Assembly: GCA_964619405.1 (NCBI GenBank)
Contig: CAZUCF010000001.1
Span: 33,633-97,632 of the forward strand
DNA length: 64,000 bases
Direction: 5' to 3'
Origin: an uncultured archaeon
GTDB lineage: Archaea; Iainarchaeota; Iainarchaeia; Iainarchaeales; JAAZKV01
Part shown: positions 19,759-38,417 of the stretch, in pieces
Layout of the letters: each line of letters starts with the position of its first letter
Position numbering within the stretch: the first letter of the stretch is position 1
Program-made: the position numbers and the translations under genes
Notes under the pieces: model-generated
The model's input: the letters and a program-made list of their open reading frames with translations, nothing else
The model's database searches: none
Told to the model about the DNA's origin: nothing

Positions 19759-22746
19759 ATGGTTACTGATTACTTGGAAGACTTATTAAACGAGGCAAAA
19801 AAAGATTCTAATAATAAAGAAGTGATTAAGGAAAACACACAAAAAATTAGTGAAGAAGAAGTTGCTAAAGATGTTAAAAAAGAGGATTTAAAAAAATTTG
19901 AGGAAAAACTTTCGCAAAACGAACTAGAACAAAAAATTGAACCAAACGACAAAAAAGAAAAAACAGAAGTAGAAAAAGAGTTAGAATCACAAAAAAAAAT
20001 TGAGTTAAAAAAATATGGAAAAACAACTATTTACGAAGTTCCAGGCAAAGCAATGAAATATTATTTTGTACCAACATTAAGACCAACATCAGCTGAAAGA
20101 AAAATAATTAATACTATAAAAGAAGCAACAACAAGACTAATTAGTATTGCACCATTCAGAATAAGAAATAATGATGAAAGAAGAATAATTTACAAGCAAA
20201 AAGTTCTTGACATAATAAAAAATAACCCATCATTAAACATTCCACCAACAAGAGTATCATTTTATGCTGACGCGGTAGTAAGAGAAATGGTTGGGTACGG
20301 TTTAATTGATGATTTAATAAAAGACGATAATTTAGAAGAAATAATGATTGTTGGCTCCAAAAAACCTGTTTTTGTTTTCCACAGAGAATATGAAATGATG
20401 CAAACTAATATAGAATTTTTTTCAGAACAAGAAATTGAGGATTTAGTAAACAAAATCGCAAGAGAAGTTGGACGAAGAGTAGATGTGTCAGCACCACTAC
20501 TTGACGCGAGATTATCTGATGGTAGCAGAATAAATGCTACAATACCACCAGCAAGTATTAGTGGTGGAACACTAACAATAAGAAAATTTAGGGAAGACCC
20601 TTACTCAATAATAGATTTAGTAAGAATGAATACTTTGAATAGTGAGGCAGCAGCGTTCCTATGGATGTGCGTTGATGGACTAGGAGTAAAACCAGCAAAC
20701 ATGCTGATTAGTGGTGGTACTGGCTCAGGAAAAACAACTCTTTTGAATGTGCTAGCATCATTCATACCAGAAAGAGAAAGAATAGTAACAATAGAAGACA
20801 CGGCAGAATTAAACCTACCCTTAAAACACTGGATTAGATTAGAAGCAAGGCCACCTGGATTAGAAGGAACAGGCGAACTAAAAATGGATATTCTAACAAA
20901 AAATTCTTTGAGAATGCGACCAGACAGAATAATTGTTGGAGAAGTAAGACACGAAGAAGCATTCACATTATTCACTGCTATCAACACGGGGCATGATGGA
21001 GCAATAATTGGTGAAAGCTTAATACAATTATCAAACGGAGAATTAATTGAAGCACAAAAACTATGTGAAAAATATTTTGATAAACCAATAAAAGAAAATG
21101 ATTACGAATTTGTTGAAATTAACGACGAATTATTTGTTCCAAGTTTAAACAAAGAAACATTAAAAATAGAAGACAAAAAAATAAATAGGATTTGGAGAAA
21201 AAAGAATGAAAAAAAATTGTTAAAAATAAAATTGCGTTCTGGAAAAGAATTAATCCTAACTAAAGATCATCCAATTTACAAAATTTGCAATGGAATAAGT
21301 GAAATAAATGCAGAAAATGTTTTAATTGGGGATTATATTGCCACACCAACAACAATAAAAATGAAATCTGAAGAAAGTATTGAGTGCCCATATTATTTAG
21401 GATTAGTTTATGGTGATGGGCACATAGGACAAGAAAGTATTGAATTTACAAACAAAGAAATTTCTCTAATAAATGCTTTTGAAGAAGAAGCAAAACAAAT
21501 AACAAAAAATAAAATTAAAAGAAAATTAAAAAATGCATATTATAGTTCATTTTATGATAAAAAAGCAGTGCGAAACCTAAACATAAATTATGAAATACCA
21601 ATTGGAAATAAAACAAAAACATTTGTACTAGGAAAAGAAATCATGCAAGGAAACGAAAAAGATTTAAGTGAATTAATAAAAGGGTTATTTGATTGCGAAT
21701 CACATGTTAACTTGCATTCAAACAGCATACAATTTTCTACATCAAATTTTGATTTAGCAAAAAAACTACCTTTAATATTACAAAGATTCGGAATACAATC
21801 CTCAACAAACATTCAAGAAAAAGATGGTAAAGGAAATATTGGACCATATTACAGAATATCAATTTATGGAAAAGACAATTTAGAAAAATACTCTCAAAAA
21901 ATTGGTTACAAGCATTCAGCAAAAAAAGAAGCATTAAAAGAATTAATTAAAAAATCAAAAAACTCTTTAGATTTGTTTCCAAACATGCAAAATGTTTTAA
22001 GGGATTTGAGAACAGAAAATAATTTAACACAAAAAGAATTATCTTTTTTAATTGGTAATAATACACCAAGTGTTTCATTATCACACGAAATAGGGACAAG
22101 AGCACCAACAAGAGAAATGTTAGAAAAAATTTGTAAACAAACCAATGGTAAAACAAAAAAACAATTAGAAATATTAACAAAATCAGATATTAGGTTTGAA
22201 AAAATAATTTCAATAAGCGAATATAATTACGATGGTTTTGTTTATGATTTAACTGTTGAAGACAACCATAATTACATTGCTAACGGAGTAATAATAAGTA
22301 ATTGCCTTGGAACAGTACACGCGAATTCTCCAGAAGAAACAATAGTAAGAGTGACTAGCCCGCCAATGAATGTACCAAACATAATGCTCTCAGGATTAGA
22401 CATGATAATAGTTGAACACAGGTACCACGACAGAAAAAAAGGAACTATTAGAAGAATAAGTGAAATAGCAGAAGTATATGGGGGCCTAGAAGGAAAACCA
22501 AAAACACAAACATTGTTTCAAAGAGATGCTGTAAAAGATTATTTGGAAAGAACAATGATTGATAGCATGTACTTAAAACAATTAAGAACTTTTACTGGTT
22601 TGTCAAAAGATAATTTGGATGCTGAGTTAAAACTAAGACAACAATTCATAGAAAATCTTGCTGAAAAAAATTTGAGAGAATTAAAAGATGTTAGTAAGAA
22701 AGCACATGACTTCATTAACAAAAGAAATCTAGGTGAAAAAATATGA
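19759..22746 (+). CDS. KlbA/TadA/FlaI-family secretion ATPase of the type IV pilus system, interrupted by an intein
   Basis: The extein carries the Walker A GGTGSGKTT, IEDTAELNL, the Asp box and His box NTGHDG...CLGTVHANS. A 434-aa insertion lies between TGHDG and CLGTVHANS. The assembled extein is about 562 aa. Confidence 0.85.
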   Translation: MVTDYLEDLLNEAKKDSNNKEVIKENTQKISEEEVAKDVKKEDLKKFEEKLSQNELEQKIEPNDKKEKTEVEKELESQKKIELKKYGKTTIYEVPGKAMKYYFVPTLRPTSAERKIINTIKEATTRLISIAPFRIRNNDERRIIYKQKVLDIIKNNPSLNIPPTRVSFYADAVVREMVGYGLIDDLIKDDNLEEIMIVGSKKPVFVFHREYEMMQTNIEFFSEQEIEDLVNKIAREVGRRVDVSAPLLDARLSDGSRINATIPPASISGGTLTIRKFREDPYSIIDLVRMNTLNSEAAAFLWMCVDGLGVKPANMLISGGTGSGKTTLLNVLASFIPERERIVTIEDTAELNLPLKHWIRLEARPPGLEGTGELKMDILTKNSLRMRPDRIIVGEVRHEEAFTLFTAINTGHDGAIIGESLIQLSNGELIEAQKLCEKYFDKPIKENDYEFVEINDELFVPSLNKETLKIEDKKINRIWRKKNEKKLLKIKLRSGKELILTKDHPIYKICNGISEINAENVLIGDYIATPTTIKMKSEESIECPYYLGLVYGDGHIGQESIEFTNKEISLINAFEEEAKQITKNKIKRKLKNAYYSSFYDKKAVRNLNINYEIPIGNKTKTFVLGKEIMQGNEKDLSELIKGLFDCESHVNLHSNSIQFSTSNFDLAKKLPLILQRFGIQSSTNIQEKDGKGNIGPYYRISIYGKDNLEKYSQKIGYKHSAKKEALKELIKKSKNSLDLFPNMQNVLRDLRTENNLTQKELSFLIGNNTPSVSLSHEIGTRAPTREMLEKICKQTNGKTKKQLEILTKSDIRFEKIISISEYNYDGFVYDLTVEDNHNYIANGVIISNCLGTVHANSPEETIVRVTSPPMNVPNIMLSGLDMIIVEHRYHDRKKGTIRRISEIAEVYGGLEGKPKTQTLFQRDAVKDYLERTMIDSMYLKQLRTFTGLSKDNLDAELKLRQQFIENLAEKNLRELKDVSKKAHDFINKRNLGEKI
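21001..22302 (+). mobile_element. intein (KlbA-type, Ala1...Asn, +1 Cys) with LAGLIDADG homing endonuclease and HTH
   Basis: The intein starts AIIGESLIQLSNGE immediately after the TGHDG extein motif and ends YDLTVEDNHNYIANGVIISN before CLGTVHANS. Internal LAGLIDADG blocks are LGLVYGDGHIG and IKGLFDCESHV. The paralogous ATPase at 43314..44837 has the uninterrupted NNGHSGCLGTIHANN. Confidence 0.8.
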
Positions 22747-23837
22747 GTGACTTAAAAATTAATGAAGAAGAAGTAAACCAAATAGTAGAAACAATGAAAA
22801 AAAAATATAGGCAAGAAGGAATTGAAATTGAAGATGTTGATAACAGTTTAAAAGAATTAAGAGGAATAATTGCTGATAATTCTTACTCAAAAATTGATTT
22901 GGAAAATGAAGAGGACTTAGAACAATTTGGCTCAAATTTGGTAAAACAATTAGGAAACATTTATGTTAAATTAAAAAAAATACTTAAACCAATAAAAAAT
23001 ATTTTGAAAGAATTTCCTTTGAGTGAGGAAATAGGTTACTATCTTTACTCAGCAAACATGCGTTACTCAGCAAACCAATATTTAGCATTAGCTAGCGCAA
23101 GTGGCTTTGTAGTAGCATTACTAACAATAATAATAATTTTTTTTATAGGCGTAATATCACAAGATTTGTTATTCACAATTATTGTTCCAATAAGTGCTGG
23201 TTTTGTAGCATGGTTATTTTCAACAATAATAATATTATATTTACCAAAAAAGTTTGCAAAAACTAGGGGCGCAAAAATTTCTGTTGAACTACCATTTGCT
23301 TTAAGACACATGTCAACAGAACTCAAAGCAGGAATAGGCTTGTACAAAACAATACAAGCAATAGCAATAAATGATTACGGTGTCCTAAGCGAAGAATTTT
23401 CAAGGACAATAAATGAGATAGAAGAAGGCTCTGATACATCAACAGCATTAAAACACACTGCCTTAAGAACACAAAGTTTACCATTAAGAAAAGCTATTAA
23501 CCACATACTAAGAGCAATGCGTATTGGTGGGAACCTTTCAGATACCATGAATGACATAGCAGAAGATGTTTCAACCGAAATGAAAAACAGGATAGGAATT
23601 TTTTCCCAAAAAATGAATTTTTTTTCAGTAATATTTATTTTCATTGGAATTGTTTTACCAGTAGCAATAATGATTCTTGGTTCAATAAGAAATTCCCCGT
23701 TAGCAGCAACAGGAGAAGATTTATTCAAAAACATTCCACTAACACCCGAAATAATGTTTTTGATTTACATAATAGGAATGCCAATAATTTTTTTGTTAAT
23801 GATTTTTATGGTTTACAACATGCAACCAAAAATGTGA
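22743..23837 (+). CDS. pilus assembly platform protein, T2SS-F domain (TadB/FlaJ-like)
   Basis: The T2SSF-like region ELKAGIGLYKTIQAIA...LRAMRIGGNLSDTMNDIAEDV is flanked by TM helices. The ORF overlaps the ATPase stop (ATGA). Confidence 0.75.
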   Translation: MSDLKINEEEVNQIVETMKKKYRQEGIEIEDVDNSLKELRGIIADNSYSKIDLENEEDLEQFGSNLVKQLGNIYVKLKKILKPIKNILKEFPLSEEIGYYLYSANMRYSANQYLALASASGFVVALLTIIIIFFIGVISQDLLFTIIVPISAGFVAWLFSTIIILYLPKKFAKTRGAKISVELPFALRHMSTELKAGIGLYKTIQAIAINDYGVLSEEFSRTINEIEEGSDTSTALKHTALRTQSLPLRKAINHILRAMRIGGNLSDTMNDIAEDVSTEMKNRIGIFSQKMNFFSVIFIFIGIVLPVAIMILGSIRNSPLAATGEDLFKNIPLTPEIMFLIYIIGMPIIFLLMIFMVYNMQPKM

Positions 23838-23841
23838 TTTT

Positions 23842-24750
23842 ATGGATTTGATTACAAAATACAATGATTGGGTAAAATTTTCTAAGTTACCTTATAACGC
23901 AATTGTTTGGGTTAGCCTAGCAATAGGAACAACAATACTAGTAGCAATTGTTTCAATAATACTAAATTTTTTCATACTACAAGAAATGACTTTATTACCC
24001 ATTGCTTTTACAACAGCAACACTAGTACTAATGCTTGGTTACCCTTACATGAAAAAAGAATCAATCATTGATACAATAGAATACAATTTTAGTGACGCTC
24101 TAAAACAAATGGCTGATACTTTAAAAGCAGGAGACACTTACGAAAGCGCTTTAAGAGAAGTAGTTAACTCTGGTTATGGTAGATTATCAGACGAAATGCA
24201 AATCGCTTTAATAAGATTAGAAGAAGGAGAAAACATTGACACATCATTAAGGGGCTTCGCAGAAAGAATTGATTCAAGACTAATAAAAAGAACTATAACA
24301 ATATTATTAGACTCAATAAAAACTGGTGCTAGTCTAGCAAATATTTTAGAGGACATTGCAGACGATGTTAGAGAATCATACAGATTAAAAGAAGAAAGAA
24401 AAGCGAACACAACAATGCAATTCATGTTCATGATTGCTGCAAGCGGTTTTATAACACCGCTAATCTTTGGGGAAATAACAGCAATAATGAATTTGTTTGG
24501 AAGAATAACTGTAACACAATTACTCGCAGGACAAGCAATAACTGGAAACACTGCAACAAACTTTGTTTTCATTCTAATACAAGCTTATCTAATAATAGAG
24601 GTCATTGCTTCAGGAGTAATGATGGCTATAATAAGAGAAGGAAAATTTGGAAAAAGTATTATTTACATTCCCCTCTTACTAATAATAGTTTTCTTAACCT
24701 ATTATCTTACAAGTTATGTAATAAGTTTAATGTTACTAGGTGTATTTTAA
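23842..24750 (+). CDS. second pilus platform protein, T2SS-F domain (TadC-like)
   Basis: The T2SSF region is LKQMADTLKAGDTYESALREVV...LDSIKTGASLANILEDIADDV. There are TM helices at both ends. Confidence 0.75.
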   Translation: MDLITKYNDWVKFSKLPYNAIVWVSLAIGTTILVAIVSIILNFFILQEMTLLPIAFTTATLVLMLGYPYMKKESIIDTIEYNFSDALKQMADTLKAGDTYESALREVVNSGYGRLSDEMQIALIRLEEGENIDTSLRGFAERIDSRLIKRTITILLDSIKTGASLANILEDIADDVRESYRLKEERKANTTMQFMFMIAASGFITPLIFGEITAIMNLFGRITVTQLLAGQAITGNTATNFVFILIQAYLIIEVIASGVMMAIIREGKFGKSIIYIPLLLIIVFLTYYLTSYVISLMLLGVF

Positions 24751-24890
24751 TGGAAGAAAAAGCACAAGTGAGTTTAGAGTACTTGCTAATAATAATTGGG
24801 GCAATAATAGTTGTTACAACAGTCGCAATGTACATTAAGGCAACAGCACAATCAACAACACAAGCAATACAAGAACAAGGAAAAAACTAG
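24750..24890 (+). CDS. Flp-like minor/major pilin, 46 aa, class III signal peptide
   Basis: The ATG overlaps the TAA of the upstream gene. Translation is MEEKAQVSLEYLLIIIGAIIVVTTVAMYIKATAQSTTQAIQEQGKN. The KAQ|VSLEYLLII segment matches the archaeal prepilin signal. The ORF is not in the track because it is shorter than 60 aa. Confidence 0.7.
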   Translation: MEEKAQVSLEYLLIIIGAIIVVTTVAMYIKATAQSTTQAIQEQGKN

Positions 24891-24904
24891 TTCAAAGTGA
24901 ACCT

Positions 24905-25012
24905 CCCCACACTAAAGTGTGGGGCTTCTGCTGGTTTACAGCAGAAGTATTCACTTTTCCGTCAACGGAAAAGAAATCTCAAACTCCAACGTAAACGTTG
25001 AAGATTTCTTTT
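24905..25012 (+). other. GC-rich cluster of four consecutive stem-loops (structured RNA element / 3' UTR)
   Basis: The hairpins are ccccacac-taaa-gtgtgggg (24905..24924), cttctgctg-gttta-cagcagaag (24925..24947) and cttttccg-tcaa-cggaaaag (24954..24973). A fourth, compound hairpin is gaaatct..caacg-taaa-cgttg..agatttc (24973..25008), followed by TTTT. Confidence 0.5.
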
Positions 25013-25110
25013 GGGTTGATTAAAAAAAAACTTTAAAACTATTAAACCAAAAAAAAAACTTGTTAAAGAATAGGTTTAAAAATAATAAAAACTTTAATAG
25101 AATAGGTAAT

Positions 25111-25132
25111 TTTTATTAAATTGAACGGAGGG
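25111..25132 (+). promoter_or_regulatory. A/T-rich TATA-like element plus GGAGG ribosome-binding site upstream of the pilin gene
   Basis: ttttattaaa (25111..25120) is followed by ggaggg at 25127..25132, which lies 8 nt upstream of the ATG at 25140. Confidence 0.35.
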
Positions 25133-25139
25133 AAATGAA

Positions 25140-25424
25140 ATGGATAAAAAAGGACAAGGAGCAATTGAATACTTATTAATCATTGGAGCAGCAATACTTG
25201 TTGTAGCAGTAGTAATAATAGCACTAGTTAGTGTTACAGGAGCAGCAACAGATGATACAACAGGAGAAGAGGCTCAAGCAGCACAACTATTACAAAGTTG
25301 TATTGCATCATGCGGAACAATTGGCGGAGACTGGAATTATAATGATAATTTGTGTTATTCAATAGCACAACCAACTAACTGGCCAATCAAATGTTACGAC
25401 TATAACGCAATAGCAGTTAACTAA
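25140..25424 (+). CDS. archaeal type IV pilin, class III signal peptide, Cys-rich C-domain
   Basis: Begins MDKKGQGAIEYLLIIGAAILVV. The C-terminal domain has six Cys. Confidence 0.8.
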   Translation: MDKKGQGAIEYLLIIGAAILVVAVVIIALVSVTGAATDDTTGEEAQAAQLLQSCIASCGTIGGDWNYNDNLCYSIAQPTNWPIKCYDYNAIAVN

Positions 25425-25444
25425 ACTTAATTAAAGATTTGTTT

Positions 25445-25480
25445 GAAAAGGCCTTAACGCCTTTTCAAAAACTATTTTTT
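25445..25480 (+). terminator. hairpin plus T-tract terminator after the pilin gene
   Basis: An 8-bp stem (gaaaaggc/gccttttc, 25445..25466) with a cttaac loop is followed by T7 at 25474..25480. Confidence 0.45.
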
Positions 25481-25548
25481 TGATACTAAAACAGAGTAAT
25501 TTAAAAATAACAAAAAACACAATAAGTAATATAATTATTGTGATAAAA

Positions 25549-28500
25549 ATGCAAAATGAAGAAAATTTAGCGCAAACAGCAATAGAGTACTTGCTAATAA
25601 TAGCAGGCGTAATTATTATTGTTACAATAATAGCTTTTTTTTCTAAGTCAATAATGCTAACCGCAACACAAACAATTGACGAGACAATAAACCTTGAAGA
25701 AGAAGTAAAAGTAACCGAAAACAAAATTTCGTTATACTATCCCAATAATACAACATATTTAACAGGAAAAATAATTTTTGCTTACGCGCCACAAAGCCCA
25801 ATTGAAATAAACTCGTGCAAATTAATAGTAAATGAAAAAGAAGAAGAAATTAATTTTAGTATTAGCAAAAACAAAATGAATATTTTTGAAAAAGATGCTA
25901 ATGATTTTCCAATAGGAAATCATTCTTGGAATATTGAGTGCGAAGACTCAAACAATGCTTTGTTCCAAGGAACACAAAAATATTTTACAATCCAAGAAGG
26001 AATCGTTGAACCAGAACAACCAATTGAACCACCACCATTACTATTTTCTGGCGGAGACGGAACAATAAACAACCCATACCAAATAACAAAAATAGAACAC
26101 TTAAACACAATAAGATACTACCCAGACAAAAATTTCATTCTAATGAATGATCTTGATTTTGAAAACAATTCTAATTACAATAACCCAATATACAAAAACT
26201 ATTTTATAACAAATGAAGGATGGAAATCAATAGGAATAACAAATTATTGTATTACAAATATTGTAAATCTTTATTGTAAGTATAATAGTAGTAAGACCAC
26301 TTGTGAAAATTCTTGTGATGGAAATTATATTGATGGAAACATATTCACTGGAAACTTTAACGGAAATAATCACACAATAAAAAATTTGTATTCAAACAAA
26401 CCACTGCATAATTACATAGGATTATTTGGAAGCACTAACAATTCACAAATAAAAAATTTGATTATAGAAGACGCAAACATAATTGGAAGAGATTACACAG
26501 GAGGAATAATAGGTTACGCAAACAACTCAATAATTAATAATATTAGTTTTGAAGGAATTATTTCAGGAAAAAATTATGTTGGCGGAATAATTGGAAGCGC
26601 AAACAATTCACAAATAAATATTTTAAAAAATACTAGTAATATAAACGCACAAGAAGTTGTTGGAGGAATAATAGGACAATCAGATCAACACACAATAATA
26701 ACAAACACACAAAACATTGGAAGCATAAATGGAATAACGGATGTTGGAGGAATAGCTGGAAGAGCACCCAATATTCAAAATTCTTTAAATTCAGGAGATA
26801 TCAATGGAACAGAAAACATTGGAGGAATAATGGGCCAATCAAACTCATTATATACTAATAATATAAAAAACACATACAACATTGGAACAATTAATGGCAA
26901 CACTAATGCAGGTGGTTTTGCCGGTAAATTAAATTCAACAATTGGAATAACCAATTCTGGTTGGTGGACGGGAACAACAACACAATCAATCGGAACACAC
27001 CCTGATTATGAACTAACTTATAATGAAATAAATAAAACAAATTTTTACCCAACAGAACATTTAATTTACACCAATGGAAATGAACCATGGGACTTTGATA
27101 ATATTTGGTTAGAAAGAGACAACAATTACCCAATACTAAGAATAATAAATGAATCAGAAACACCAACACCCCCACAACAAGAACTACCACCAGTACAATT
27201 CGCTGGCGGAGACGGAACAATAAACAACCCATACCAAATAACAAAAATAGAACACTTAAACACAATAAGATACTACCCAGACAAAAATTTCATTCTAATG
27301 AATGACCTTGATTTTGAAAATGACAATGATTACAACAACTCAGAAAACAAAAATTATTTTATAACAAACGAAGGATGGAGCTCAATAGGAAAAAAAACTT
27401 ATTGTGAAACAAGCAGCACCAACACAATTTGTAAAAATAATCAAACAACTTGTGAATTCACATGCAATGGAATATGGTTTGAAGAAAATTTATTCACAGG
27501 AAATTTTAACGGAAATTACAAAAAAATAAATAATTTGTATTCAAACAAACCATTACACGATTACACAGGATTATTTGGAAGCATTAAAAATTCTGAAATA
27601 AAAAATTTGATTATAGAAGACGCAAACATAATTGGAAGAGATAACACAGGTGGAATAATAGGCGATGCAAACCTCGCAAAAATCAATAATGTAAGTTTTA
27701 AAGGAATTATTTCAGGAAAAAATAATGTGGGCGGAATAACAGGAAATATAAGTAGCTCAAATATTGATAATACAAAAAATTTTGGAAAAATAAATGCACA
27801 AGAAAATGTAGGAGGAATAACCGGGAATGTAAAAAACACTTCAATAAACAATGCATTTAATACTCAAGAAATAAACGGAACAACAAATGTCGGAGGAATA
27901 ACCGGGAACCATTCTGGTGGATTAATTACCAATGTAATAAATATTGGCCAAATTAATGGAACAATAAATGTTGGAGGAATAGCTGGAAGAGCACCCAATA
28001 TTCAAAATTCTTTAAATTCAGGAGATATCAATGGAACAGAAAACATTGGAGGAATAATGGGCCAATCAAACTCATTATATACTAATAATATAAAAAACAC
28101 ATACAACATTGGAACAATTAATGGCAACACTAATGCAGGTGGTTTTGCCGGTAAATTAAATTCAACAATTGGAATAACCAATTCTGGTTGGTGGACGGGA
28201 ACAACAACACAATCAATCGGAACACACCCTGATTATGAACTAACTTATAATGAAATAAATAAAACAAATTTTTACCCAAAAGAACACCTAATTTACACAG
28301 CTCAATCACCAATCTGGGATTTTGAAAACACTTGGTTAGAAAGAGACAACAATTACCCAATACTAAAAACAATGAATGAAATAGAACGCTTACCCCAGTT
28401 CCCAAATGGCGATGGAACAATAAACAACCCATACCAAATAACAAAAGTAGAACACTTAAACACAATAAGATACTATTTAAACTCAAATTTTGTTTTAATG

Positions 28501-29598
28501 AATGACCTAGACTTTGAAAACAATAATAATTATATTAATCCTGAAAACAAAAATGATTTTATATTTGGAGAAGGTTGGGATCCTATTGGAAAAACAAATT
28601 ATTGCATAACAAGCAATACTACTACAAATTGTAATGACTGGAAAAGTGTTTGTGAAAATACTTGCAAAGGAATTTGGATTGAAACAAATTTATTCACAGG
28701 AAATTTTAACGGAAATAATAATACAATAAAAAATTTGTATTCAAACAAACCACAACACAATTACACTGGATTATTTGGAAGCATATCTAATTCAGAAATA
28801 AAAAATTTGATTATAGAAGACGCAAACATAATTGGAAAAGAATTTATAGGTGGAATAATTGGTAGCACAAATTATTCAATAATAAATAATGCAAGTTTTG
28901 AAGGAAACATTTCAGGAAAAAATTATGTTGGCGGAATAATTGGTTACGCAAATAACTCTGACATAAATAACACAAAAAATTATGGAAAAATAAATGCACA
29001 AGACAGAGTAGGTGGAATAATAGGATCGGTCGTACGCAGTAAAATAAACAATTCTTTTAATAATAACAAAATATCTGGTGCAAACTCTATTGGCGGAATA
29101 ATAGGCTTTTCACAAGGAGCCACAACAAAATACACAAATGTAATAAATATTGGAAGCATAAATGGGCAAACTAATGTTGGCGGAATAATTGGTTACGATT
29201 ATTATTCAGAAATAAAAAACTCTTTAAATGCAGGAGATATCAATGGAACAAGCCAAATAGGAGGAATAACCGGCCAAACAATTAATCAAACAAACAAAAT
29301 AGATAATTCATATAATATTGGTTTGATTACAGGTACTGAAGATATTGGGGGAATAATAGGAAACATTTATTCAACAACATCATTAACAATAACCAATTCA
29401 GGTTGGTGGACAGGAACAACAACACAAGCAATCGGAAACAACACAACTATTGTGTTCAGTTATAATGAAACAAACAAAACAAATTTTTACCCAAAAGAAC
29501 ATTTAATTTACACCAATGGAAATGAACCATGGGACTTTGATAATATTTGGTTAGAAAGAGACAACAATTACCCAATACTAAGAATAATGAATGAATAA
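25549..29598 (+). CDS. giant (~1350 aa) pilin-fused surface adhesin with three tandem ~400-aa beta-helix/GLUG-like repeat modules
   Basis: The likely true start is M24 of the track ORF (MQNEENLAQTAIEYLLIIAGVIIIV), a class III signal peptide. Three modules follow, each starting GGDGTINNPYQITKIEHLNTIRYY and containing many (N)xVGGI(I/T)G repeats about 19 aa apart. Confidence 0.8.
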   Translation: MQNEENLAQTAIEYLLIIAGVIIIVTIIAFFSKSIMLTATQTIDETINLEEEVKVTENKISLYYPNNTTYLTGKIIFAYAPQSPIEINSCKLIVNEKEEEINFSISKNKMNIFEKDANDFPIGNHSWNIECEDSNNALFQGTQKYFTIQEGIVEPEQPIEPPPLLFSGGDGTINNPYQITKIEHLNTIRYYPDKNFILMNDLDFENNSNYNNPIYKNYFITNEGWKSIGITNYCITNIVNLYCKYNSSKTTCENSCDGNYIDGNIFTGNFNGNNHTIKNLYSNKPLHNYIGLFGSTNNSQIKNLIIEDANIIGRDYTGGIIGYANNSIINNISFEGIISGKNYVGGIIGSANNSQINILKNTSNINAQEVVGGIIGQSDQHTIITNTQNIGSINGITDVGGIAGRAPNIQNSLNSGDINGTENIGGIMGQSNSLYTNNIKNTYNIGTINGNTNAGGFAGKLNSTIGITNSGWWTGTTTQSIGTHPDYELTYNEINKTNFYPTEHLIYTNGNEPWDFDNIWLERDNNYPILRIINESETPTPPQQELPPVQFAGGDGTINNPYQITKIEHLNTIRYYPDKNFILMNDLDFENDNDYNNSENKNYFITNEGWSSIGKKTYCETSSTNTICKNNQTTCEFTCNGIWFEENLFTGNFNGNYKKINNLYSNKPLHDYTGLFGSIKNSEIKNLIIEDANIIGRDNTGGIIGDANLAKINNVSFKGIISGKNNVGGITGNISSSNIDNTKNFGKINAQENVGGITGNVKNTSINNAFNTQEINGTTNVGGITGNHSGGLITNVINIGQINGTINVGGIAGRAPNIQNSLNSGDINGTENIGGIMGQSNSLYTNNIKNTYNIGTINGNTNAGGFAGKLNSTIGITNSGWWTGTTTQSIGTHPDYELTYNEINKTNFYPKEHLIYTAQSPIWDFENTWLERDNNYPILKTMNEIERLPQFPNGDGTINNPYQITKVEHLNTIRYYLNSNFVLMNDLDFENNNNYINPENKNDFIFGEGWDPIGKTNYCITSNTTTNCNDWKSVCENTCKGIWIETNLFTGNFNGNNNTIKNLYSNKPQHNYTGLFGSISNSEIKNLIIEDANIIGKEFIGGIIGSTNYSIINNASFEGNISGKNYVGGIIGYANNSDINNTKNYGKINAQDRVGGIIGSVVRSKINNSFNNNKISGANSIGGIIGFSQGATTKYTNVINIGSINGQTNVGGIIGYDYYSEIKNSLNAGDINGTSQIGGITGQTINQTNKIDNSYNIGLITGTEDIGGIIGNIYSTTSLTITNSGWWTGTTTQAIGNNTTIVFSYNETNKTNFYPKEHLIYTNGNEPWDFDNIWLERDNNYPILRIMNE
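26050..29595 (+). repeat. three tandem intragenic repeat units (26050..27204, 27205..28404, 28405..29595) with perfectly identical sub-segments
   Basis: Perfect DNA identities are 26741..27052 = 27968..28279 (312 bp), 26048..26150 = 27203..27305 (103 bp) and 27054..27146 = 29496..29588 (93 bp). Confidence 0.85.
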
Positions 29599-29633
29599 TA
29601 GAAAAGAATAATAAGTTTAAAATAATTAATTAA

Positions 29634-29921
29634 ATGATTAAAATGACAAAAAAATATTTTTCAGAAAAAAAAGCACAAGGTGCAATAGAATACTTATTGA
29701 TTATTGGAGCAGCAATACTAGTAGTAGCAATAGTATCAATATCAATGGTAGGCGTAACAACAGGGGGCCTAGAAAAAACAGATGCTGATACAATAAGAGA
29801 CACAACACTAATACTAGAATGTCAAAAAGAATGCATTCAACAAGGTTACAGTTGGAACGGAATTAATTGTGAAGTAGAAACCAGTGAAAAATGCAATGAA
29901 TTTGGACCTAACCCAAATTAA
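29634..29921 (+). CDS. archaeal type IV pilin, class III signal peptide
   Basis: Contains EKKAQGAIEYLLIIGAAILVV and a C-terminal Cys-containing domain. The start is 29634 or the ATG at 29643. Confidence 0.75.
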   Translation: MIKMTKKYFSEKKAQGAIEYLLIIGAAILVVAIVSISMVGVTTGGLEKTDADTIRDTTLILECQKECIQQGYSWNGINCEVETSEKCNEFGPNPN

Positions 29922-29970
29922 ATCTAATTTTCAGCAACAATTAAATATCACTTAATTAATACTATTTCTT

Positions 29971-30261
29971 ATGAATAATAACAAGAGCAATAATAGAGGA
30001 CAAACCGCAATAGAATACTTATTGATTATTGGAGCAGCAGTACTACTAGTAGCAATAGTAATAATTTTTATTTCACAAGCAATTGCAACTGGTTCAGACA
30101 CTGGTGGGGAAAACACTTACCAATATTTGTGCGTAACACTTGATTCAAACACATTGGATTGCGGTTGTTATTTAGGAGAAACCAATAGAGGCGGAGCAAC
30201 TAATGACTTATGTTGTGCAAAACCCCAAAGTATTTTACGCTCAAAATGGACTTGTGGTTAA
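29971..30261 (+). CDS. archaeal type IV pilin, class III signal peptide
   Basis: Begins MNNNKSNNRGQTAIEYLLIIGAAVLLV. The C-terminus is Cys-rich. Confidence 0.75.
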   Translation: MNNNKSNNRGQTAIEYLLIIGAAVLLVAIVIIFISQAIATGSDTGGENTYQYLCVTLDSNTLDCGCYLGETNRGGATNDLCCAKPQSILRSKWTCG

Positions 30262-30262
30262 A

Positions 30263-30454
30263 TTGAATAAAAAAAATCTTTTTGAAGAAGAAAAAGCACA
30301 AGTTGCTTTCGAGTATTTGTTAACAGCAGTATTTGGAATAATATTAACAATAGGAACAGCCTTAATATTAGAAACATTAAGACAACTAGCATTAAAAGCG
30401 CAAACCGATTTTTTGAATGAACGAACAAGAGTAATAGAAAATCTTTTACAATAA
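30263..30454 (+). CDS. Flp-like short pilin, class III signal peptide
   Basis: A probable TTG start at 30263 lies right after the upstream stop. The N-terminus reads NKKNLFEEEKAQVAFEYLLTAVFGIIL. The longer track ORF (from 30203) overlaps the previous gene. Confidence 0.6.
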   Translation: MNKKNLFEEEKAQVAFEYLLTAVFGIILTIGTALILETLRQLALKAQTDFLNERTRVIENLLQ

Positions 30455-30672
30455 AAAAGCAATCAAAATAAAAATCACAAAAAAGCAAAACTAAAAAAAT
30501 ATCAAACAAATAATAAAAATTAAAAACTACAAAACAAACAACAAAAATTAAAAACTATCAAACAAATAATACGACTTCATATTATTAAAAAGATTAATTA
30601 ATTTTTTTATATTGGTTCAAAATCAAATAAGATATTTTTTTAAATTGGAAAAACCTTATTTAATAGATAAAG

Positions 30673-31767
30673 ATGTTTTTTCTCACAGCAATAATAATTT
30701 CTTTGATTGGTTTGCTTGGCGCAACATACACTGATTTAACAGAAAGAATTGTTCCAAACAAACTAAATTTTGGTTTAATTATAACAGGACTATTAATATA
30801 TTCAATTCAATCAATATACATGCAAAATATTTTCCCCATAATTTATTCTATTTTTGGGTTGTGTTTTGGATTCTTTTTTGGTTGGACACTATGGAAACTA
30901 GGTGTTTTTGCTGGAGGAGATGTAAAATTATTCATGGCATTAGGCACATTAAATCCTTTCACCCCAGCATTAATCAAAGTTGGTTTTTTAACAAATATTA
31001 GTTACCCAATAATGCCAATAAGTTTATTCATTTATTCTTTACTTGCTTTTCTACCATACGGAATAATAGTAATAATACACAAATTATTGAAAAACAAAAA
31101 AGAAAGAAAAAAAATATTTTTGGAATTAAAACAAAAAACAATACTCGCGACACACACCTCAATATTTATTTCAGGAGCATATGTTATTACAACAATAATT
31201 ACAACAAACAATTTTTTGAATTTGATAATTATTTTTACAGCACTAATAATATGGAATTTTTTAAAACAAAGAAAAAAATATTTAACTATTATTTTTGCAT
31301 TAATTGGATTAATAATAAATTATTTGACAATGATTGAATACTTGATAATACTAATAATACTTTTTGTTGGATTATATGGTTTGATAAGAATATTATTTTT
31401 AATGAAACCATTACTCTCAAAAAAAATATTTATTAATGATTTAGAAGAAGGCATGATTCCAAGCAAAACATTGATGTGGAAAGGCAAAAAAGTTATTGAA
31501 AAAAAACAATTAAGTCTTAAAGAACTAATACGAAAAATGAAAAACAAAGAAATAGTTTCAAGCGAAAAAGAAATTATTTCTTCGATGAAAGCAAGGGGCC
31601 TGACAATTGAAGAAATTAATACATTAAAAAAGTTATCCAAAAAAGGATTAATATCAAAAACACTTCTTGTAAAAGATTCAATCCCTTTTGTCCCAACAAT
31701 ATTATTAGGATATATTTTGTGCTTGATTTTAGGAGATTTTATAATCCAGATAGTGTTATTCATATAA
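30673..31767 (+). CDS. prepilin/preflagellin peptidase (PibD/FlaK, A24 family) with C-terminal extension
   Basis: The first catalytic Asp is in GATYTDLTERIVPNKL and the second in AGGDVKLFMALG. The protein is polytopic. Confidence 0.8.
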   Translation: MFFLTAIIISLIGLLGATYTDLTERIVPNKLNFGLIITGLLIYSIQSIYMQNIFPIIYSIFGLCFGFFFGWTLWKLGVFAGGDVKLFMALGTLNPFTPALIKVGFLTNISYPIMPISLFIYSLLAFLPYGIIVIIHKLLKNKKERKKIFLELKQKTILATHTSIFISGAYVITTIITTNNFLNLIIIFTALIIWNFLKQRKKYLTIIFALIGLIINYLTMIEYLIILIILFVGLYGLIRILFLMKPLLSKKIFINDLEEGMIPSKTLMWKGKKVIEKKQLSLKELIRKMKNKEIVSSEKEIISSMKARGLTIEEINTLKKLSKKGLISKTLLVKDSIPFVPTILLGYILCLILGDFIIQIVLFI

Positions 31768-31776
31768 GGTGAAAAA

Positions 31777-32229
31777 ATGCGAGGACAAGCAACCATAGAA
31801 TTTATTTTTATAATATTAATAGTAATTGTTTACATTTTTAGTGTAACAAAACCATTAATAGAAAACGCGCAAGGAGTAATTGAAGATATTGAAAACATTT
31901 CTAAAACAAATTACGCAACACAACAAATAGTTAACACAACAAATAAAATAGCTTTACTAGGAACAAATTCAAAAGAAACTATTACATTATTTATTCCAAA
32001 CAATTCTAAAATAATTTGTCAAGAAAATGGTTTTAGTTACCAAATTGAAATAAACAAAACAGGAAACAACCCAACTATCTTACTTTGCCCACAAAATATT
32101 TGTGAAAAACGTTTTGAAATACTTGAAGGATTTACAATTAACTGTGAAGAAGACCTATTTGGATACGGAATAAAAAAAATAGCAATAGAAAAAATTGAAA
32201 AAAATAAAATAAAAATAAATAATGGGTGA
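31777..32229 (+). CDS. pilin-like protein, class III signal peptide
   Basis: Begins MRGQATIEFIFIILIVIV. Confidence 0.65.
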   Translation: MRGQATIEFIFIILIVIVYIFSVTKPLIENAQGVIEDIENISKTNYATQQIVNTTNKIALLGTNSKETITLFIPNNSKIICQENGFSYQIEINKTGNNPTILLCPQNICEKRFEILEGFTINCEEDLFGYGIKKIAIEKIEKNKIKINNG

Positions 32230-32563
32230 ATTTTTGAGAGGCCAAGTATCTTTTGAAGTATTATTACTTATTCTACTAGTTGTCATAATAGCAATAACCA
32301 TGACTAATTTATTCATACAAACAAATGACACTACTAATGCTTACTTGTTAATAAGAAACGAGTTCTTGTTACAAACAAATGTAAAAAATGAAGAAATAAT
32401 ATTAGAACAAATTTATTTCGTACAAGAAGATACACCCACTTTTTACATAAAAACAATTCCAATTATAATAAATTCTAACGACATAAATCTTACATTAATT
32501 GAAGACAAGGTTAACAAAATGACAAATTTCAAAAACACTAAAATAAAAATTAATGCAGAATAA
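32222..32563 (+). CDS. pilin-like protein, class III signal peptide
   Basis: Begins MGEFLRGQVSFEVLLLILLVVII. Confidence 0.65.
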   Translation: MGEFLRGQVSFEVLLLILLVVIIAITMTNLFIQTNDTTNAYLLIRNEFLLQTNVKNEEIILEQIYFVQEDTPTFYIKTIPIIINSNDINLTLIEDKVNKMTNFKNTKIKINAE

Positions 32564-32742
32564 AAATTAATACAGAATAAAAAAATAAGTAATATACTAT
32601 AAAAAAACAAATCTAATACATTTAAATTTAATCAAAAACTAACTATATAATTTAATTTATTTAACAAAACTTCAATATAAAAAAGACGACAATTAACGAA
32701 AAAGTGCTTTGGTTTTTTTAAACTTAATTATATAAAAAAATT

Positions 32743-33069
32743 ATGAATGAAAGAAATATTACCCAAATTTGTATCATCATATCAATAATTGGTTTAATTT
32801 TTTTTGTTTTTTGTTACGAAGAAGAATTCCCAGAAAAAACAATAAGTGAAATGATTTCAAATATTGGAACAAAAGGAAAACTAATTGGAAAAGTAGAATA
32901 CATAATAAATAATGAGCCATTAATTTTTATTCTCCAAAACGAAGAAAAAATAAAAGTTTTTTACCCAAAAAAAATTGAGTTAAAAAAAAATGATATTGTA
33001 GAAGTATTCGGAGAAACCACTATTTACAATAACGAAATTGAGATTTTTGCTCAAAGGGTAACAAAATGA
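32743..33069 (+). CDS. small membrane-anchored protein, possible OB-fold
   Basis: An N-terminal TM anchor is followed by a beta-rich ~80-aa domain. No motif is recognised. Confidence 0.4.
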   Translation: MNERNITQICIIISIIGLIFFVFCYEEEFPEKTISEMISNIGTKGKLIGKVEYIINNEPLIFILQNEEKIKVFYPKKIELKKNDIVEVFGETTIYNNEIEIFAQRVTK

Positions 33070-34244
33070 TTACTTACTTGTTACTTGGAATAATAGCTGG
33101 CACAACCGCAGGATTAATTCCTGGCATACACACAAACAATATAACACTAATAGTTTTCCTAACACCACTCTTTGGAAACAATGCAACAGTTTTTGTTTTG
33201 AGCATGATAACAACACAAAGCTTTGTTGACTTCATACCAACAATATTTATTGGAGCGGCAAGCGAAAACTCTTTTGAAGGAATATTGCCTGGACACAAAA
33301 TGTTCATGCAAGGAAAAGCACACGAAGCAATAATGCTAACTGTTTTTGGAGGAATAATAGCAACAATAATTTCAATACTTGTGTTTCCGTTTTTCATCAA
33401 AAGCATTGAATTTTATTCCACAAATTTTGAAATAATAATTCCAATGATATTAATTTTTTCAATAATAACACTAATACTCACTGAAAACACTAAACAAAAA
33501 AAATTAATTGCTATTTTTGTAATAATTGTTGCTACAACACAAGGAATATTATTCAAAGACCAAATTTTCCCATTAATAAGTGGTTATTTTGGTATTTCAA
33601 CATTAATTAATTCCACAATAAAAAAACAAATTTCACAAAAACAGGAAACTGAATTTGAAATACACAACGATAAAATAAAAGACGCTTTAACAGGAATTAT
33701 CGGAGGAGCAATAGTTGCTTTTGTGCCAGGAATAGGAAATAATTTAGCTGCCGCCATAATTAGATTGTTCAGACAAAAAATAAGAACGAAAAATTATTTG
33801 GTTTTATTAGGAAGTATAAACACTAGTAATTTTATTTTTTCTTTCCCAGTATTATTATTTTTATCAAAAACAAGGAACGGTGCAATGATTTTTTTAAAAG
33901 AAAGAATTCTTATTACAGAACAAACTATTTTGATTGGTTGCGCTACCATACTAATTTCTTCAGGAATAGCAGGAATCATAACAATAATTATTTCAAAAAA
34001 AATGTCCAAAAACAGTAATAATTCAAAATTTATAAAACTACAACAAAACAAAATCATCGAAAAAATAATTATTATACTTATTACAATACTTGTTTTATTC
34101 TTTAACGGGTTAATTGGTTTAATAGCATTAATTTTTTCAACAGCATTAGGATTAATAACAATAAACACTAAAACAAAAAGAAGTAATTGCCTAGCATTTT
34201 TGATAATACCAGTCCTATTTTTCTACCTTTACCAATTAATATAA
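33066..34244 (+). CDS. TctA-family (DUF112) polytopic membrane protein
   Basis: The N-terminal GIIAGTTAGLIPGIHTNN and the ENSFEGILPGHKMFMQGKAHEAIMLTVFGGIIA region resemble the TctA GxxPG / PGE...DG..mar.G..g.AL motifs. Confidence 0.5.
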   Translation: MITYLLLGIIAGTTAGLIPGIHTNNITLIVFLTPLFGNNATVFVLSMITTQSFVDFIPTIFIGAASENSFEGILPGHKMFMQGKAHEAIMLTVFGGIIATIISILVFPFFIKSIEFYSTNFEIIIPMILIFSIITLILTENTKQKKLIAIFVIIVATTQGILFKDQIFPLISGYFGISTLINSTIKKQISQKQETEFEIHNDKIKDALTGIIGGAIVAFVPGIGNNLAAAIIRLFRQKIRTKNYLVLLGSINTSNFIFSFPVLLFLSKTRNGAMIFLKERILITEQTILIGCATILISSGIAGIITIIISKKMSKNSNNSKFIKLQQNKIIEKIIIILITILVLFFNGLIGLIALIFSTALGLITINTKTKRSNCLAFLIIPVLFFYLYQLI

Positions 34245-34246
34245 TT

Positions 34247-34612
34247 ATGTGGCACATAAAAAAAAGTTTGTTAGAAGATATAATCCAATCATCAAAAAAT
34301 TATTTACCTGATGAATTCCTATGCTTTTTAGGAAGCAATACACAAAAACAAGAAATAATAGAAATAATTTTTTTACCCAATCAAAGTGATGAATCATCAA
34401 CCAGCATAAACATGAATGCTTTCCCAAGCGATGCAACAATAATAGGTAGCGCTCACTCACACCCAAATAGCAGTATTTTGCCAAGCAATGCAGACAAAAA
34501 ATTCTTTAAAAGATTCAAAATTAATATAATAATAGGGTTAAATAAATTTGAAACCAGAATAGGGTTTTATAATGAAAAAACCAACAAGATAGAAGTGAAA
34601 ATAATTGATTAG
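34247..34612 (+). CDS. JAMM/MPN+ metalloprotease domain protein
   Basis: The JAMM motif HSHPNSSILPSNADKK (H-x-H-x7-S-x2-D) is present. The start is taken at the internal ATG (MWHIKK). Confidence 0.6.
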   Translation: MWHIKKSLLEDIIQSSKNYLPDEFLCFLGSNTQKQEIIEIIFLPNQSDESSTSINMNAFPSDATIIGSAHSHPNSSILPSNADKKFFKRFKINIIIGLNKFETRIGFYNEKTNKIEVKIID

Positions 34613-34636
34613 ACAAAGTTAAAAAGAAAAAAAGAG

Positions 34637-35029
34637 TTGAATTATTACATGAAAGGACAAGTAAGTTTAGATTTGTTACTAACAATACTAGCATTAGTAA
34701 TATTTATTAGCACAACAACAATGATAATTAACGAAATAAAACAAAACAATGAACTAATCATATTAGATAATAAATTAAAAATAATTGCAAATGATTACTC
34801 GTCATTAATAACAACAAGTGAATTATTAATTGATTTTAATTATGAAATAAGAAAAAATTTAGATGTTGTTATTTTTAAAGGGAAAAAAACTATTCCAGAG
34901 TTAACAACCAATAATGAAAAACTTATTTTAAATATTAGTGAATACAAACGAACAATTGAAACAAATATTCCAACAAACAATAAAACAATTAAACAAGAAG
35001 AACAATTTTTGGTGATCACAAATGAATAA
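34637..35029 (+). CDS. pilin-like protein, class III signal peptide
   Basis: Begins MKGQVSLDLLLTILALVIFI. Confidence 0.65.
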   Translation: MNYYMKGQVSLDLLLTILALVIFISTTTMIINEIKQNNELIILDNKLKIIANDYSSLITTSELLIDFNYEIRKNLDVVIFKGKKTIPELTTNNEKLILNISEYKRTIETNIPTNNKTIKQEEQFLVITNE

Positions 35030-35498
35030 AGGTCAAATTTTTTCACTTGATTTTTTGCTAGCAACAATAATTATGATAATATTTATTGGAACAACAATAA
35101 ATGCTTTTGAAACTAGAACATATTTAATAAAAGAAGAAATTAATTCAGATATTCTAATACAAAACAGCAATTCAGCTTTTATCGCACTAACTAATGGAAT
35201 TTATTCTTGTAAAACTGAAAATTATATTAGTTTACCATTTACAATAAATGAAACCGTTTTAAATTCAAAAAATATTGGTGAATTGAAAGCAAGCATTGGT
35301 TTGCAAGACAAAAACATCTCATTAGAAATAAATGGAACAAAAGTGTTTGATGAAATTAATCAAAAAGAAACAATTATTGCAATTGAAAACGAAGTTCTTT
35401 TTTGTAATAATATAATAGAACTTAAAGATTTAGAAGATTGCTTAAATGGAAATTGTATTTTTGAAAAGAAAAAAATTATTTTAATGGTGGAAAAATGA
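35022..35498 (+). CDS. pilin-like protein, class III signal peptide
   Basis: Begins MNKGQIFSLDFLLATIIMIIFI. Confidence 0.65.
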   Translation: MNKGQIFSLDFLLATIIMIIFIGTTINAFETRTYLIKEEINSDILIQNSNSAFIALTNGIYSCKTENYISLPFTINETVLNSKNIGELKASIGLQDKNISLEINGTKVFDEINQKETIIAIENEVLFCNNIIELKDLEDCLNGNCIFEKKKIILMVEK

Positions 35499-35770
35499 AA
35501 GGCTTTCTTTTTTCTATTGAAGCATTAATAACAATAATATTATTGATTTCAACTATTACCATCATATGGACTTATTTTGATTATAATTATAATACAAACT
35601 TTTTAACAACAAACTCAAAAATTAATACAATCAACGCATTTTATTTTAATGATTATTCTAAATCAACCGCGAATGATTCAAATTTGAATATTAATTTTTG
35701 TTCCAAAATAATAATTTATAATAATCAAAAAGAATTTGAGGAAAAAACTTTTTGCGAGGGAATAAAATGA
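35495..35770 (+). CDS. pilin-like protein, class III signal peptide
   Basis: Begins MKGFLFSIEALITIILLIS. Confidence 0.55.
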   Translation: MKGFLFSIEALITIILLISTITIIWTYFDYNYNTNFLTTNSKINTINAFYFNDYSKSTANDSNLNINFCSKIIIYNNQKEFEEKTFCEGIK

Positions 35771-36174: not shown

Positions 36175-36207
36175 GGTTATTTATACCTTTTCTTGGAAAA
36201 CTAATTT

Positions 36208-37959: not shown

Positions 37960-37960
37960 C

Positions 37961-38362: not shown

Positions 38363-38417
38363 TCAAACTAATTCCCATTACGAATTTATTTAAAACCCTT
38401 CTCAAAACAATACTTTT

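Follow-up and report, generated by a model that had tools for sequence, protein, structure and literature searches.

What is a gene for more than 1,300 residues doing among the small pilin genes of an archaeal pilus locus, and what would its product do at the cell surface? The question is raised by an open reading frame (ORF) in a 64,000-nt window of contig CAZUCF010000001.1, from an uncultured archaeon (all coordinates given here are positions in this window). The frame proposed in a preliminary description of the same DNA was confirmed: the giant modular pilin gene occupies 25549–29598 (+), with an ATG at 25549 and a stop at 29598, and encodes 1,349 amino acids (aa). Its product is very probably a GLUG beta-helix surface protein anchored by a pilin helix; the full mechanism, in which it would act as a pilus adhesin, is held with less assurance and is favoured on balance. 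The window is archaeal in content (it encodes RLI/ABCE1, Elp3-like, HerA and Rad50-like proteins), and its RLI is 70–75% identical to proteins named 'Candidatus Diapherotrites' or 'Candidatus ainarchaeum', which supports the DPANN affiliation (Iainarchaeota/Diapherotrites) suggested earlier. Host dependence, which the preliminary description presumed as probable, cannot be taken for granted in this phylum.

Pilin-type helix and immunoglobulin-like spacer

The N-terminus was analysed by alignment, AlphaFold2 (AF2) prediction and Pfam, which delimited a leader (aa 1–8, predicted cleavage A8/Q9) and a hydrophobic alpha-1 helix (aa 9–36, Glu at +5), together encoded by 25549–25656 (+). The protein begins MQNEENLA|QTAIEY, with Ala at −1 and Gln at +1 of the predicted site, and carries the motif AQTAIEYLLIIAG at aa 8–20; an A|Q or G|Q site is also found in most pilins of the locus. 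On alignment of aa 1–55 with all locus pilins, Q9, E13 and Y14 (+1, +5 and +6) were invariant, and the best match was a 46-aa mini-pilin (43% identity; pilins of 94–96 aa, 27–33%), whose helix-only build is resembled by the pilin part of the giant protein. Past the predicted cleavage site, E13 stands at +5 in a hydrophobic helix of at least 20 residues. Gln at +1 is essential for EppA, the pilin-specific peptidase of Methanococcus (PMC4390842). In the AF2 model, computed from an alignment of N-terminal homologues, residues 2–36 form a helix (mean predicted local distance difference test score, pLDDT, of 76, 92 and 87 for the 10-residue blocks over residues 1–30), residues 37–55 a low-confidence linker, and residues 59–148 an independent beta-sandwich (pLDDT 96–98); the predicted template modelling score (pTM) of the whole model was 0.58.

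This sandwich, a fibronectin type III (FnIII)/immunoglobulin (Ig)-like spacer encoded by 25723–25992 (+) with a conserved Cys90–Cys131 pair, was assigned from the AF2 model, from Foldseek and from the domains of homologues. The best Foldseek hits of aa 59–148 were the CelAly B1 domain, CbhA Fn3-like modules and the N-terminal domain of ChiA (chitinase A), with no pilin heads, and homologues of the domain match Big_7 or Big_13. When 1.8 billion representatives were scanned in full with HMMER, giant proteins as long as 7,719 aa proved to carry up to 22 copies of it. The spacer was considered as the globular head of a pilin and rejected as such, being a generic repeat (up to 22 times in unrelated giants) that is not packed on the helix. 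A Pro-rich linker joins it to the GLUG modules.

A longer start, TTG at 25480, was judged unlikely. ATG 25549 was preferred because the extension would traverse an A/T-rich promoter-like box (TTTAAAAATAA...; 25500–25539, +), because GTGAT precedes the ATG, and because the leader of the closest homologue, P0245, is 11 aa long. The box belongs to direct-repeat family D9, is a copy of 25075–25114 upstream of the 94-aa pilin gene and might be an archaeal TATA-like element. Between that pilin gene and the giant gene, a consensus scan gave a pattern match to a terminator-like hairpin followed by a T-run (25442–25469, +). Antisense ORFs within the giant gene (e.g. 26903–27265 and 28130–28486) were judged to be by-products of the repeats.

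Three beta-helix modules and their sequence exchange

The remainder of the protein consists of three tandem modules: M1 (aa 165–549, 385 aa; 26041–27195, +; 7 coils, by alignment and coil count), M2 (aa 550–949, 400 aa; 27196–28395, +; 8 coils; the copy that was modelled) and M3 (aa 950–1349, 400 aa; 28396–29595, +; 8 coils, by alignment and Pfam). They open with GGDGT/NGDGT-INNPYQITK(I/V)EHLNTIRYY and contain FTGNFNGN...NLYSNKP...GLFGS, in agreement with the preliminary description, which had counted about ten turns per module; that number was not reproduced, the coils being 7, 8 and 8 with a length of ~27 aa. In total there are 20 GG[IFL]xG turns and 3 GLFG, i.e. 6–7 turns and one GLFG per module, and M1 is shorter than M2 and M3 by exactly one 27-aa coil. 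Pfam Peptidase_M26_N (PF05342) matched the whole protein with 36.7 bits (cut-off 27.7) and Glug (PF07581) matched M3 with 29.3 bits (cut-off 20.5), while M1 and M2 alone scored 17.0 and 8.5 bits and were sub-threshold. The M2 model, from a 19-sequence alignment, reached pLDDT 82 and pTM 0.81, with the solenoid core mostly >90 and a four-Cys insert and the last ~55 residues poorly resolved. It is a predicted right-handed beta-helix, and its nearest solved structures are GLUG helices. A profile of the family matched 3n6z and IgA1 proteases among PDB sequences (E 7e-24 to 5e-20); phmmer with M2 alone found nothing in PDB sequences, and only the family profile matched. The proposed GLUG or right-handed beta-helix pattern is thus upheld by the two Pfam families (PF07581 for M3) and by the predicted beta-solenoid, and helix and solenoid were both obtained by structure prediction.

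In each module the N-cap and the first coil are separated by a four-Cys insert (C-x8-C-x6-8-C-x3-C), at 26240–26320, 27400–27470 and 28600–28670 (aa 234–256, 619–639 and 1019–1039). The insert has a pLDDT <50 and is highly variable among the modules; a disulfide-knotted loop and a metal site are both conceivable, and the insert might be what contacts the ligand.

Right-handed beta-helices also serve catalysis, as the fold of pectate and alginate lyases, of glycoside hydrolases and of phage tailspike depolymerases. A polysaccharide-degrading enzyme displayed on the pilus or surface, instead of an adhesin, was therefore weighed and is regarded as highly improbable: conservation in the family alignment is confined to Gly and hydrophobic positions and extends to no acidic or basic residue, the margin to GLUG helices is clear, and three tandem copies would be typical of binders of the avidity type and not of enzymes. 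The same alignment is a point against the adhesin as well, since its invariant positions (Gly, Leu, Phe and Ile) are structural only, and a ligand site cannot be named. Identity with IgA1 proteases was rejected, as there is no protease domain and no HExxH anywhere in the 1,349 aa; Pfam and NCBIfam matches are confined to the beta-helix part. In the complex of IgA1 protease with its substrate, the N-terminal domain containing the beta-helix contacts the IgA1 Fab, and the helix gates the active site and is non-catalytic (PMC7695701). The giant protein has no catalytic motif, and no anchor other than the pilin helix was found (no C-terminal transmembrane segment or sorting signal).

Homologues were searched among 5.8 billion protein clusters. 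All 1,442 were at ≤37% identity (nearest full-length relative 28%), and nearly all were bacterial GLUG proteins anchored by type IX secretion system (T9SS), dockerin, S-layer homology (SLH) or two-partner-secretion (TPS) domains, in whose place the giant protein carries its pilin helix. A scan of genome contigs with the whole protein yielded neither the protein itself nor close relatives, only Clostridia GLUG proteins of 26–32% identity; the genome is therefore not among the GTDB species representatives. Archaeal fusions were few, all of them unannotated or labelled 'hypothetical' or 'GLUG motif-containing'. P0245 shares leader type, helix and Ig domain with the giant protein (50% identity over aa 2–150) and has two Ig domains and one GLUG module where the giant protein has one Ig spacer and three GLUG modules. 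P0066 (MDD4251341.1, Ca. ainarchaeum) joins a class III N-terminus to GLUG, as does P0009 (HOW29680.1), outside a pilus locus, with a Pilin_N-type N-terminus. In P0246, P0259 and P0341 the same helix and the same Ig domain are fused to other passengers, which in these three and in L021 are Cys-rich, NHL-like or other. A metagenome scan with an alignment of the window N-terminus and P0245 returned only helix-only mini-pilins and the unrelated L021, and no further family members. L021 (3805–4617 of Ga0315295_10035025) is itself a modular pilin, cut by the contig end, with a class III N-terminus (GRA|QTAIEYLLLIGG) and a helix shared with the giant protein, a small Cys-rich segment, a long (TP)n linker and, by eye, NHL-type beta-propeller-like repeats. 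Judged from these seven sequences, fusion of a helix-only pilin to assorted binding modules is a recurrent theme, the exact architecture of the giant protein being nearly unique in current databases. A literature search on GLUG, pilin and archaea found no papers.

Base-by-base comparison of the modules verified the perfect identities reported previously. A 312-bp tract in M1 (26741–27052, +) is exactly identical to 27968–28279 (+) in M2, a 103-bp stretch of the module N-cap in M1 (26048–26150, +) to 27203–27305 in M2, and a 93-bp stretch of the C-cap in M1 (27054–27146, +) to 29496–29588 in M3. Overall nucleotide identity is 84% for M1–M2, 74% for M2–M3 and 76% for M1–M3 and is strongly mosaic: M1 and M2 agree at 100% over ~300 nt in the last coils, with flanks of 63–85%, and M1 and M3 are identical solely in the C-terminal cap. 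In a GENECONV-style permutation on 338 variable sites (20,000 permutations), 93 consecutive variable sites agreed between M1 and M2 (permutation maximum 20) and 21 between M1 and M3 (permutation maximum 10), with p<5e-5 for both; gene conversion between modules, as postulated earlier, is supported by these values and by the mosaic identity. Synonymous divergence (dS, Nei–Gojobori) was 0.5–1.0 outside the tracts and 0.008 and 0.047 in alignment windows containing tracts, the value of 0.008 coming from the one that holds the 312-bp M1–M2 tract, and the ratio of nonsynonymous to synonymous divergence (dN/dS, Nei–Gojobori) of the modules was 0.33–0.46 overall. Because dS outside the tracts is 0.5–1.0, the triplication is old: the modules are old duplicates, all three kept by purifying selection, and only patches have been exchanged recently. 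Of the 'recently homogenised modules' of the preliminary description, it is the patches that are recent and not the modules. Of the length or antigenic variability that was likewise suggested, and that may or may not exist within a population, there are indirect signs only: the recent conversion tracts, the different number of modules in P0245 and the lack of the gene in relatives.

The perfect identities, and possibly the number of modules, might also have been produced by metagenome assembly if repeat variants had been merged or mis-threaded. The 312-bp repeat is longer than usual k-mers and short reads, and the protein was found once, on one contig, in a collection of 15 billion proteins. 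Five Logan short-read contigs (three independent assemblies, SRR11845623-25) match 20932–24926 and 30007–46688 at 100%, and none spans 24927–30006; support for the repeat region therefore comes from one assembly only, which tells against our interpretation of it. These contigs, however, break in or near the pilin N-terminal repeats and a hairpin region and nowhere contradict the window. Moreover, the frame is intact over 4,047 nt, the module flanks are diverged (dS 0.5–1.0), M1 differs by a clean deletion of one 27-aa coil, and the dN/dS values show that each copy is real coding sequence; bubble-merging could raise an identity of ~98% to 100% but could not create the tracts. Intact frame, diverged flanks and dN/dS argue that the three-module structure is real and make an artefact very unlikely, although consensus merging may have raised the identity slightly to a strict 100%.

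The pilus locus and its syntenic relatives

The giant gene lies inside a pilus locus, as the preliminary description had it; the locus is complete, and its components were identified with Pfam and NCBIfam. Upstream are, all on the plus strand, a type IV filament assembly ATPase (T2SSE/FlaI-like; 19759–22746; Pfam T2SSE 1.3e-36) that contains an intein, platform protein 1 (T2SSF/TadC-like; 22743–23837; Pfam T2SSF 9.1e-21), platform protein 2 (T2SSF/FlaJ-like; 23842–24750; Pfam T2SSF 9.4e-17, NCBIfam ArlJ/FlaJ 2.3e-21), the 46-aa helix-only mini-pilin (MEEKA|QVSLEYLLIIIG...; 24750–24890; Pfam Class_IIIsignal 28.7 bits, cut-off 23.7) and a 94-aa small pilin with a Cys-rich C-terminus (25140–25424; Class_IIIsignal 29 bits), which together with a 95-aa small pilin (29634–29921; 30.3 bits) brackets the giant gene. 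Downstream follow, on the same strand, a 96-aa small pilin (29971–30261), a 63-aa class III-like ORF (...EEEKA|QVAFEYLL...; 30263–30454; no Pfam match at threshold) and an A24 prepilin peptidase of archaeal type, presumably the enzyme responsible for processing (30673–31767; Pfam Peptidase_A24 1.1e-12, Arc_PepC 8.7e-11, Arc_PepC_II 3.5e-9). At least seven ORFs of the locus have class III-like N-termini, and T2SSE, two T2SSF and Peptidase_A24 with Arc_PepC all occur within 6 kb. An ATPase with a platform split into two genes characterises 'system 1' of the archaeal type IV filaments, the type represented by Epd pili in methanogens and some DPANN (bioRxiv 10.64898/2026.04.22.720090). By gene content (ATPase, two-gene platform, several pilins, dedicated peptidase) and the definition in that preprint, the locus belongs to this system.

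The RLI gene is situated 6.6 kb downstream of the giant gene, and close RLI orthologues therefore gave access to syntenic loci, which were informative in three relatives (L011, L012 and a JGI contig of 366 kb; RLI ~75% identical in each). All three have the gene order ATPase, platform, platform, 48-aa mini-pilin, 84–89-aa pilin, 92–102-aa pilin, 58-aa ORF and A24 peptidase and, although otherwise collinear, all lack a large gene among the pilins; the 96-aa pilin of the window is orthologous to their 92/102-aa pilin, and its 63-aa ORF to the 58-aa ORF. Compared with the relatives, the window has the giant gene and one extra pilin, that of 95 aa. Both bracketing pilins are co-orthologous to the single 84/89-aa pilin of the relatives, and the first 96 nt of the 95-aa and 94-aa pilin genes are 81% identical. 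Because three syntenic relatives carry the locus without it, the giant gene is a lineage-specific accessory insertion, which came with an extra pilin paralogue. The conserved pilin 5′ ends could be imagined as recombination handles of a swappable specificity cassette, through which the gene would be gained, lost or exchanged between strains while conversion among the modules reshuffled the binding surfaces; we consider this quite unlikely.

Several observations weigh against the giant protein as a pilus-borne attachment device. It is dispensable for building the pilus and cannot be the core attachment device of the lineage, which speaks against its being 'the' attachment organelle of the group; the 'prime candidate for the host-attachment organelle' of the preliminary description could not be maintained, since three syntenic relatives keep the pilus locus without the gene. 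Its score with Pfam PF04021 is 19.2 bits, below the gathering cut-off of 23.7 (neighbouring pilins, 28.7–30.3 bits), and the leader MQNEENLA, which includes two Glu, is free of Lys and Arg and has Leu at −2, where five other locus pilins have K/R; for both reasons cleavage is uncertain. A globular pilin domain packed against the alpha-1 helix is missing; the helix is followed by a floppy linker and an independent spacer (pTM 0.58). Archaeal class III signals are also used by surface proteins that are not part of pili, e.g. the substrates of the Sulfolobus bindosome. The giant protein might accordingly be a membrane-tethered, bindosome-like surface protein, whose helix, cleaved or uncleaved, would be an anchor or export signal and whose beta-helices would decorate the envelope and never enter a pilus. 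The non-canonical leader, the linker and the very large passenger (~1,300 aa) would fit such a protein, and S-layer-like proteins and adhesins that are not pilins have been recorded in pilus loci in a census of archaeal type IV pili (PMC4858521).

Tethering is nevertheless thought unlikely. The N-terminus is closest to the mini-pilin of the locus and keeps Gln +1 and Glu +5, and the gene is placed between pilin genes and upstream of a dedicated peptidase. The leader of P0245 (...KLFA|QVAIEYLLII...) is also non-basic at −2 (Phe; a Lys lies further upstream); retention of the unusual leader type in this homologue suggests a functional, selected signal, and a conserved signal variant is therefore favoured over a decayed one. 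Helix-only pilins of the Flp/Tad type, furthermore, need no globular domain to polymerise. The class III signal called 'bona fide' before is thus sound in its pilin-type helix, Gln +1 and Glu +5, and falls short of that term in its PF04021 score, the absence of a basic residue and the Leu at −2.

In the pilus-adhesin mechanism, which we favour, the A24 peptidase of the locus would cleave Ala8/Gln9, and the ATPase and the two-gene platform would pull the helix from the membrane and polymerise it into an Epd-like ('system 1') pilus. The giant subunit would probably be located at the tip or be present in low copy number, because its passenger is bulky, and the Ig stalk and three beta-helices (estimated roughly at 15–20 nm array length) would project from the cell as an adhesin that binds a glycan or a protein. 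Such an arrangement would match the 'modular pilin' concept proven for PilB of Streptococcus sanguinis (PMC8179133), and the giant protein is a credible accessory adhesin by prediction.

Further features of the locus and its surroundings were recorded. The intein of the pilus ATPase (Pfam Intein_splicing 5.5e-27, LAGLIDADG_3 1.9e-13; NCBIfam intein N- and C-terminal models) comprises ~430 aa with LAGLIDADG and helix-turn-helix domains and is placed after the Walker region. The ATPase genes of the relatives appear shorter (566–581+ aa, cut by the locus ends), and their products are therefore probably intein-free. The mini-pilin, essentially one helix of ~41 aa after cleavage, has an ATG that overlaps the platform gene stop, corresponds to the 48-aa ORF of the three relatives (orthologues including L011 and L012) and may be the major, Flp-like pilin of the system; comparable mini-pilins with 36–40 mature residues occur on unrelated metagenome contigs (L018–L020). 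Its gene is followed at 24888–25010 (+) by four successive GC-rich hairpins with a minimum free energy of −48.5 kcal/mol over 123 nt (z = −7.2 vs shuffles, in a genome of ~27% GC), which had no Rfam match. L011 and L012 have a spacer of just ~60 nt at this position, and one Logan contig ends inside the stretch (24926). A strong terminator or attenuator behind the major pilin gene is one possible reading, a remnant of the insertion another. Downstream of the peptidase lie two ORFs with class III signals, minor pilin-like and of 150 and 113 aa (31777–32563, +; weak Pfam Class_IIIsignal matches), and, by their translations, four small ORFs with pilin-like N-termini (34637–36174, +; e.g. MKGQVSLDLLL and NKGQIFSLDFLL), with syntenic ORFs in L011 and L012. 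A second, stand-alone ATPase of the T2SSE family (43314–44837, −; 506 aa), ~14 kb downstream of the pilus locus, is kept at the same position in L009, L011 and L012, the L011 copy having a faint PilB3_C match. A NifU-like ORF at 57159–58685 (+; 508 aa) matches NifU_N in two separate stretches, best at aa 434–502, and may contain another intein or insertion, since it is far longer than a normal NifU/IscU. The threonyl-tRNA synthetase at 17873–19630 (+) scores 659 bits with the bacterial-type model TIGR00418 and 224 bits with the archaeal-type model; such a gene also adjoins that of the unrelated archaeal pilin-GLUG protein P0009 (in L001), which may be a coincidence.

Relation to known systems and significance

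Modular type IV pilins are established tip adhesins in bacteria, the examples being S. sanguinis PilB with a von Willebrand factor A (vWA) module, PilC with a lectin module, and CofB of enterotoxigenic Escherichia coli (PMC8179133). With these the giant protein shares a class III signal and pilin helix, a linker and a grafted module for filament display; its Ig spacer, Pro-rich linker and three GLUG modules also fit the definition by which the linker is followed by modules not specific to type IV pilus biology. It differs in its archaeal signal (AQxxxEYLL, DUF361/PF04021-like, whereas the bacterial one is the IPR012902 motif), in a pilin part that is helix-only and without a globular pilin domain, in the size of its passenger (an Ig spacer and three beta-helices, ~1,200 aa, compared with an extreme of 860 aa in PMC8179133) and in that the bacterial proteins have experimental support and this one is known from sequence alone. 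We take the architecture IPR012902-IPR011493 to be a prepilin joined to GLUG. This architecture is listed six times in Dataset S1 of PMC8179133, where pilin-Big_7 likewise occurs six times, and adhesin-like proteins in archaeal type IV filament loci have been described (PMC4858521; bioRxiv 10.64898/2026.04.22.720090). The statement that such fusions are essentially uncharacterised accordingly goes too far, bacterial modular pilins being characterised and six apparent pilin-GLUG architectures having been listed.

The modules are homologous to the GLUG helix of M26 IgA1 metalloproteases and Bacteroides BACOVA_03286 (PF07581/PF05342; PDB 3n6z, 6xjb and 7uvk). Unlike those, the giant protein has no metalloprotease domain, has three tandem helices, each with a four-Cys insert, and is anchored by a pilin helix in place of LPXTG, T9SS, dockerin or SLH. 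The locus resembles that of the Epd pili of Methanococcus maripaludis (PMC3875500; PMC4390842) in its ATPase, two-gene platform, dedicated peptidase, many minor pilins and Gln +1, and Epd loci in general in that adhesin-like or class III-signal proteins with binding domains are encoded within them (bioRxiv 10.64898/2026.04.22.720090); it differs in that the organism belongs to DPANN, in the intein of the ATPase and in its adhesin-like part, a GLUG array fused to a pilin, of which there is no report from Epd loci. The giant protein is therefore no new kind of system but an archaeal example of the known 'modular pilin' idea. New is the archaeal DPANN version of Epd type, a helix-only pilin extended by an Ig stalk and by a triplicated GLUG array that undergoes intragenic conversion, inserted between duplicated pilin genes. 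For the idea of host attachment, a functional analogy is offered by the episymbiotic Saccharibacteria, ultrasmall cells with reduced genomes in which type IV pili mediate attachment to the host cell (PMC9894109; PMC11623550); these are bacteria with different pilins and experimental evidence, whereas here there are genes only.

The value of the finding is limited by an uncultured organism and by a singleton gene (nearest full-length relative 28%) that is absent from the closest related genomes. If the cassette described above existed, the gene would be a contingency locus that determines to which partner cell or surface the pilus can hold on. The grafting of modules on pilins, known from bacteria, is also used in archaea, the graft being a widespread bacterial GLUG beta-helix. 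The molecular basis by which DPANN attach to surfaces and partner cells is largely unknown, and the giant gene is a concrete candidate for it.

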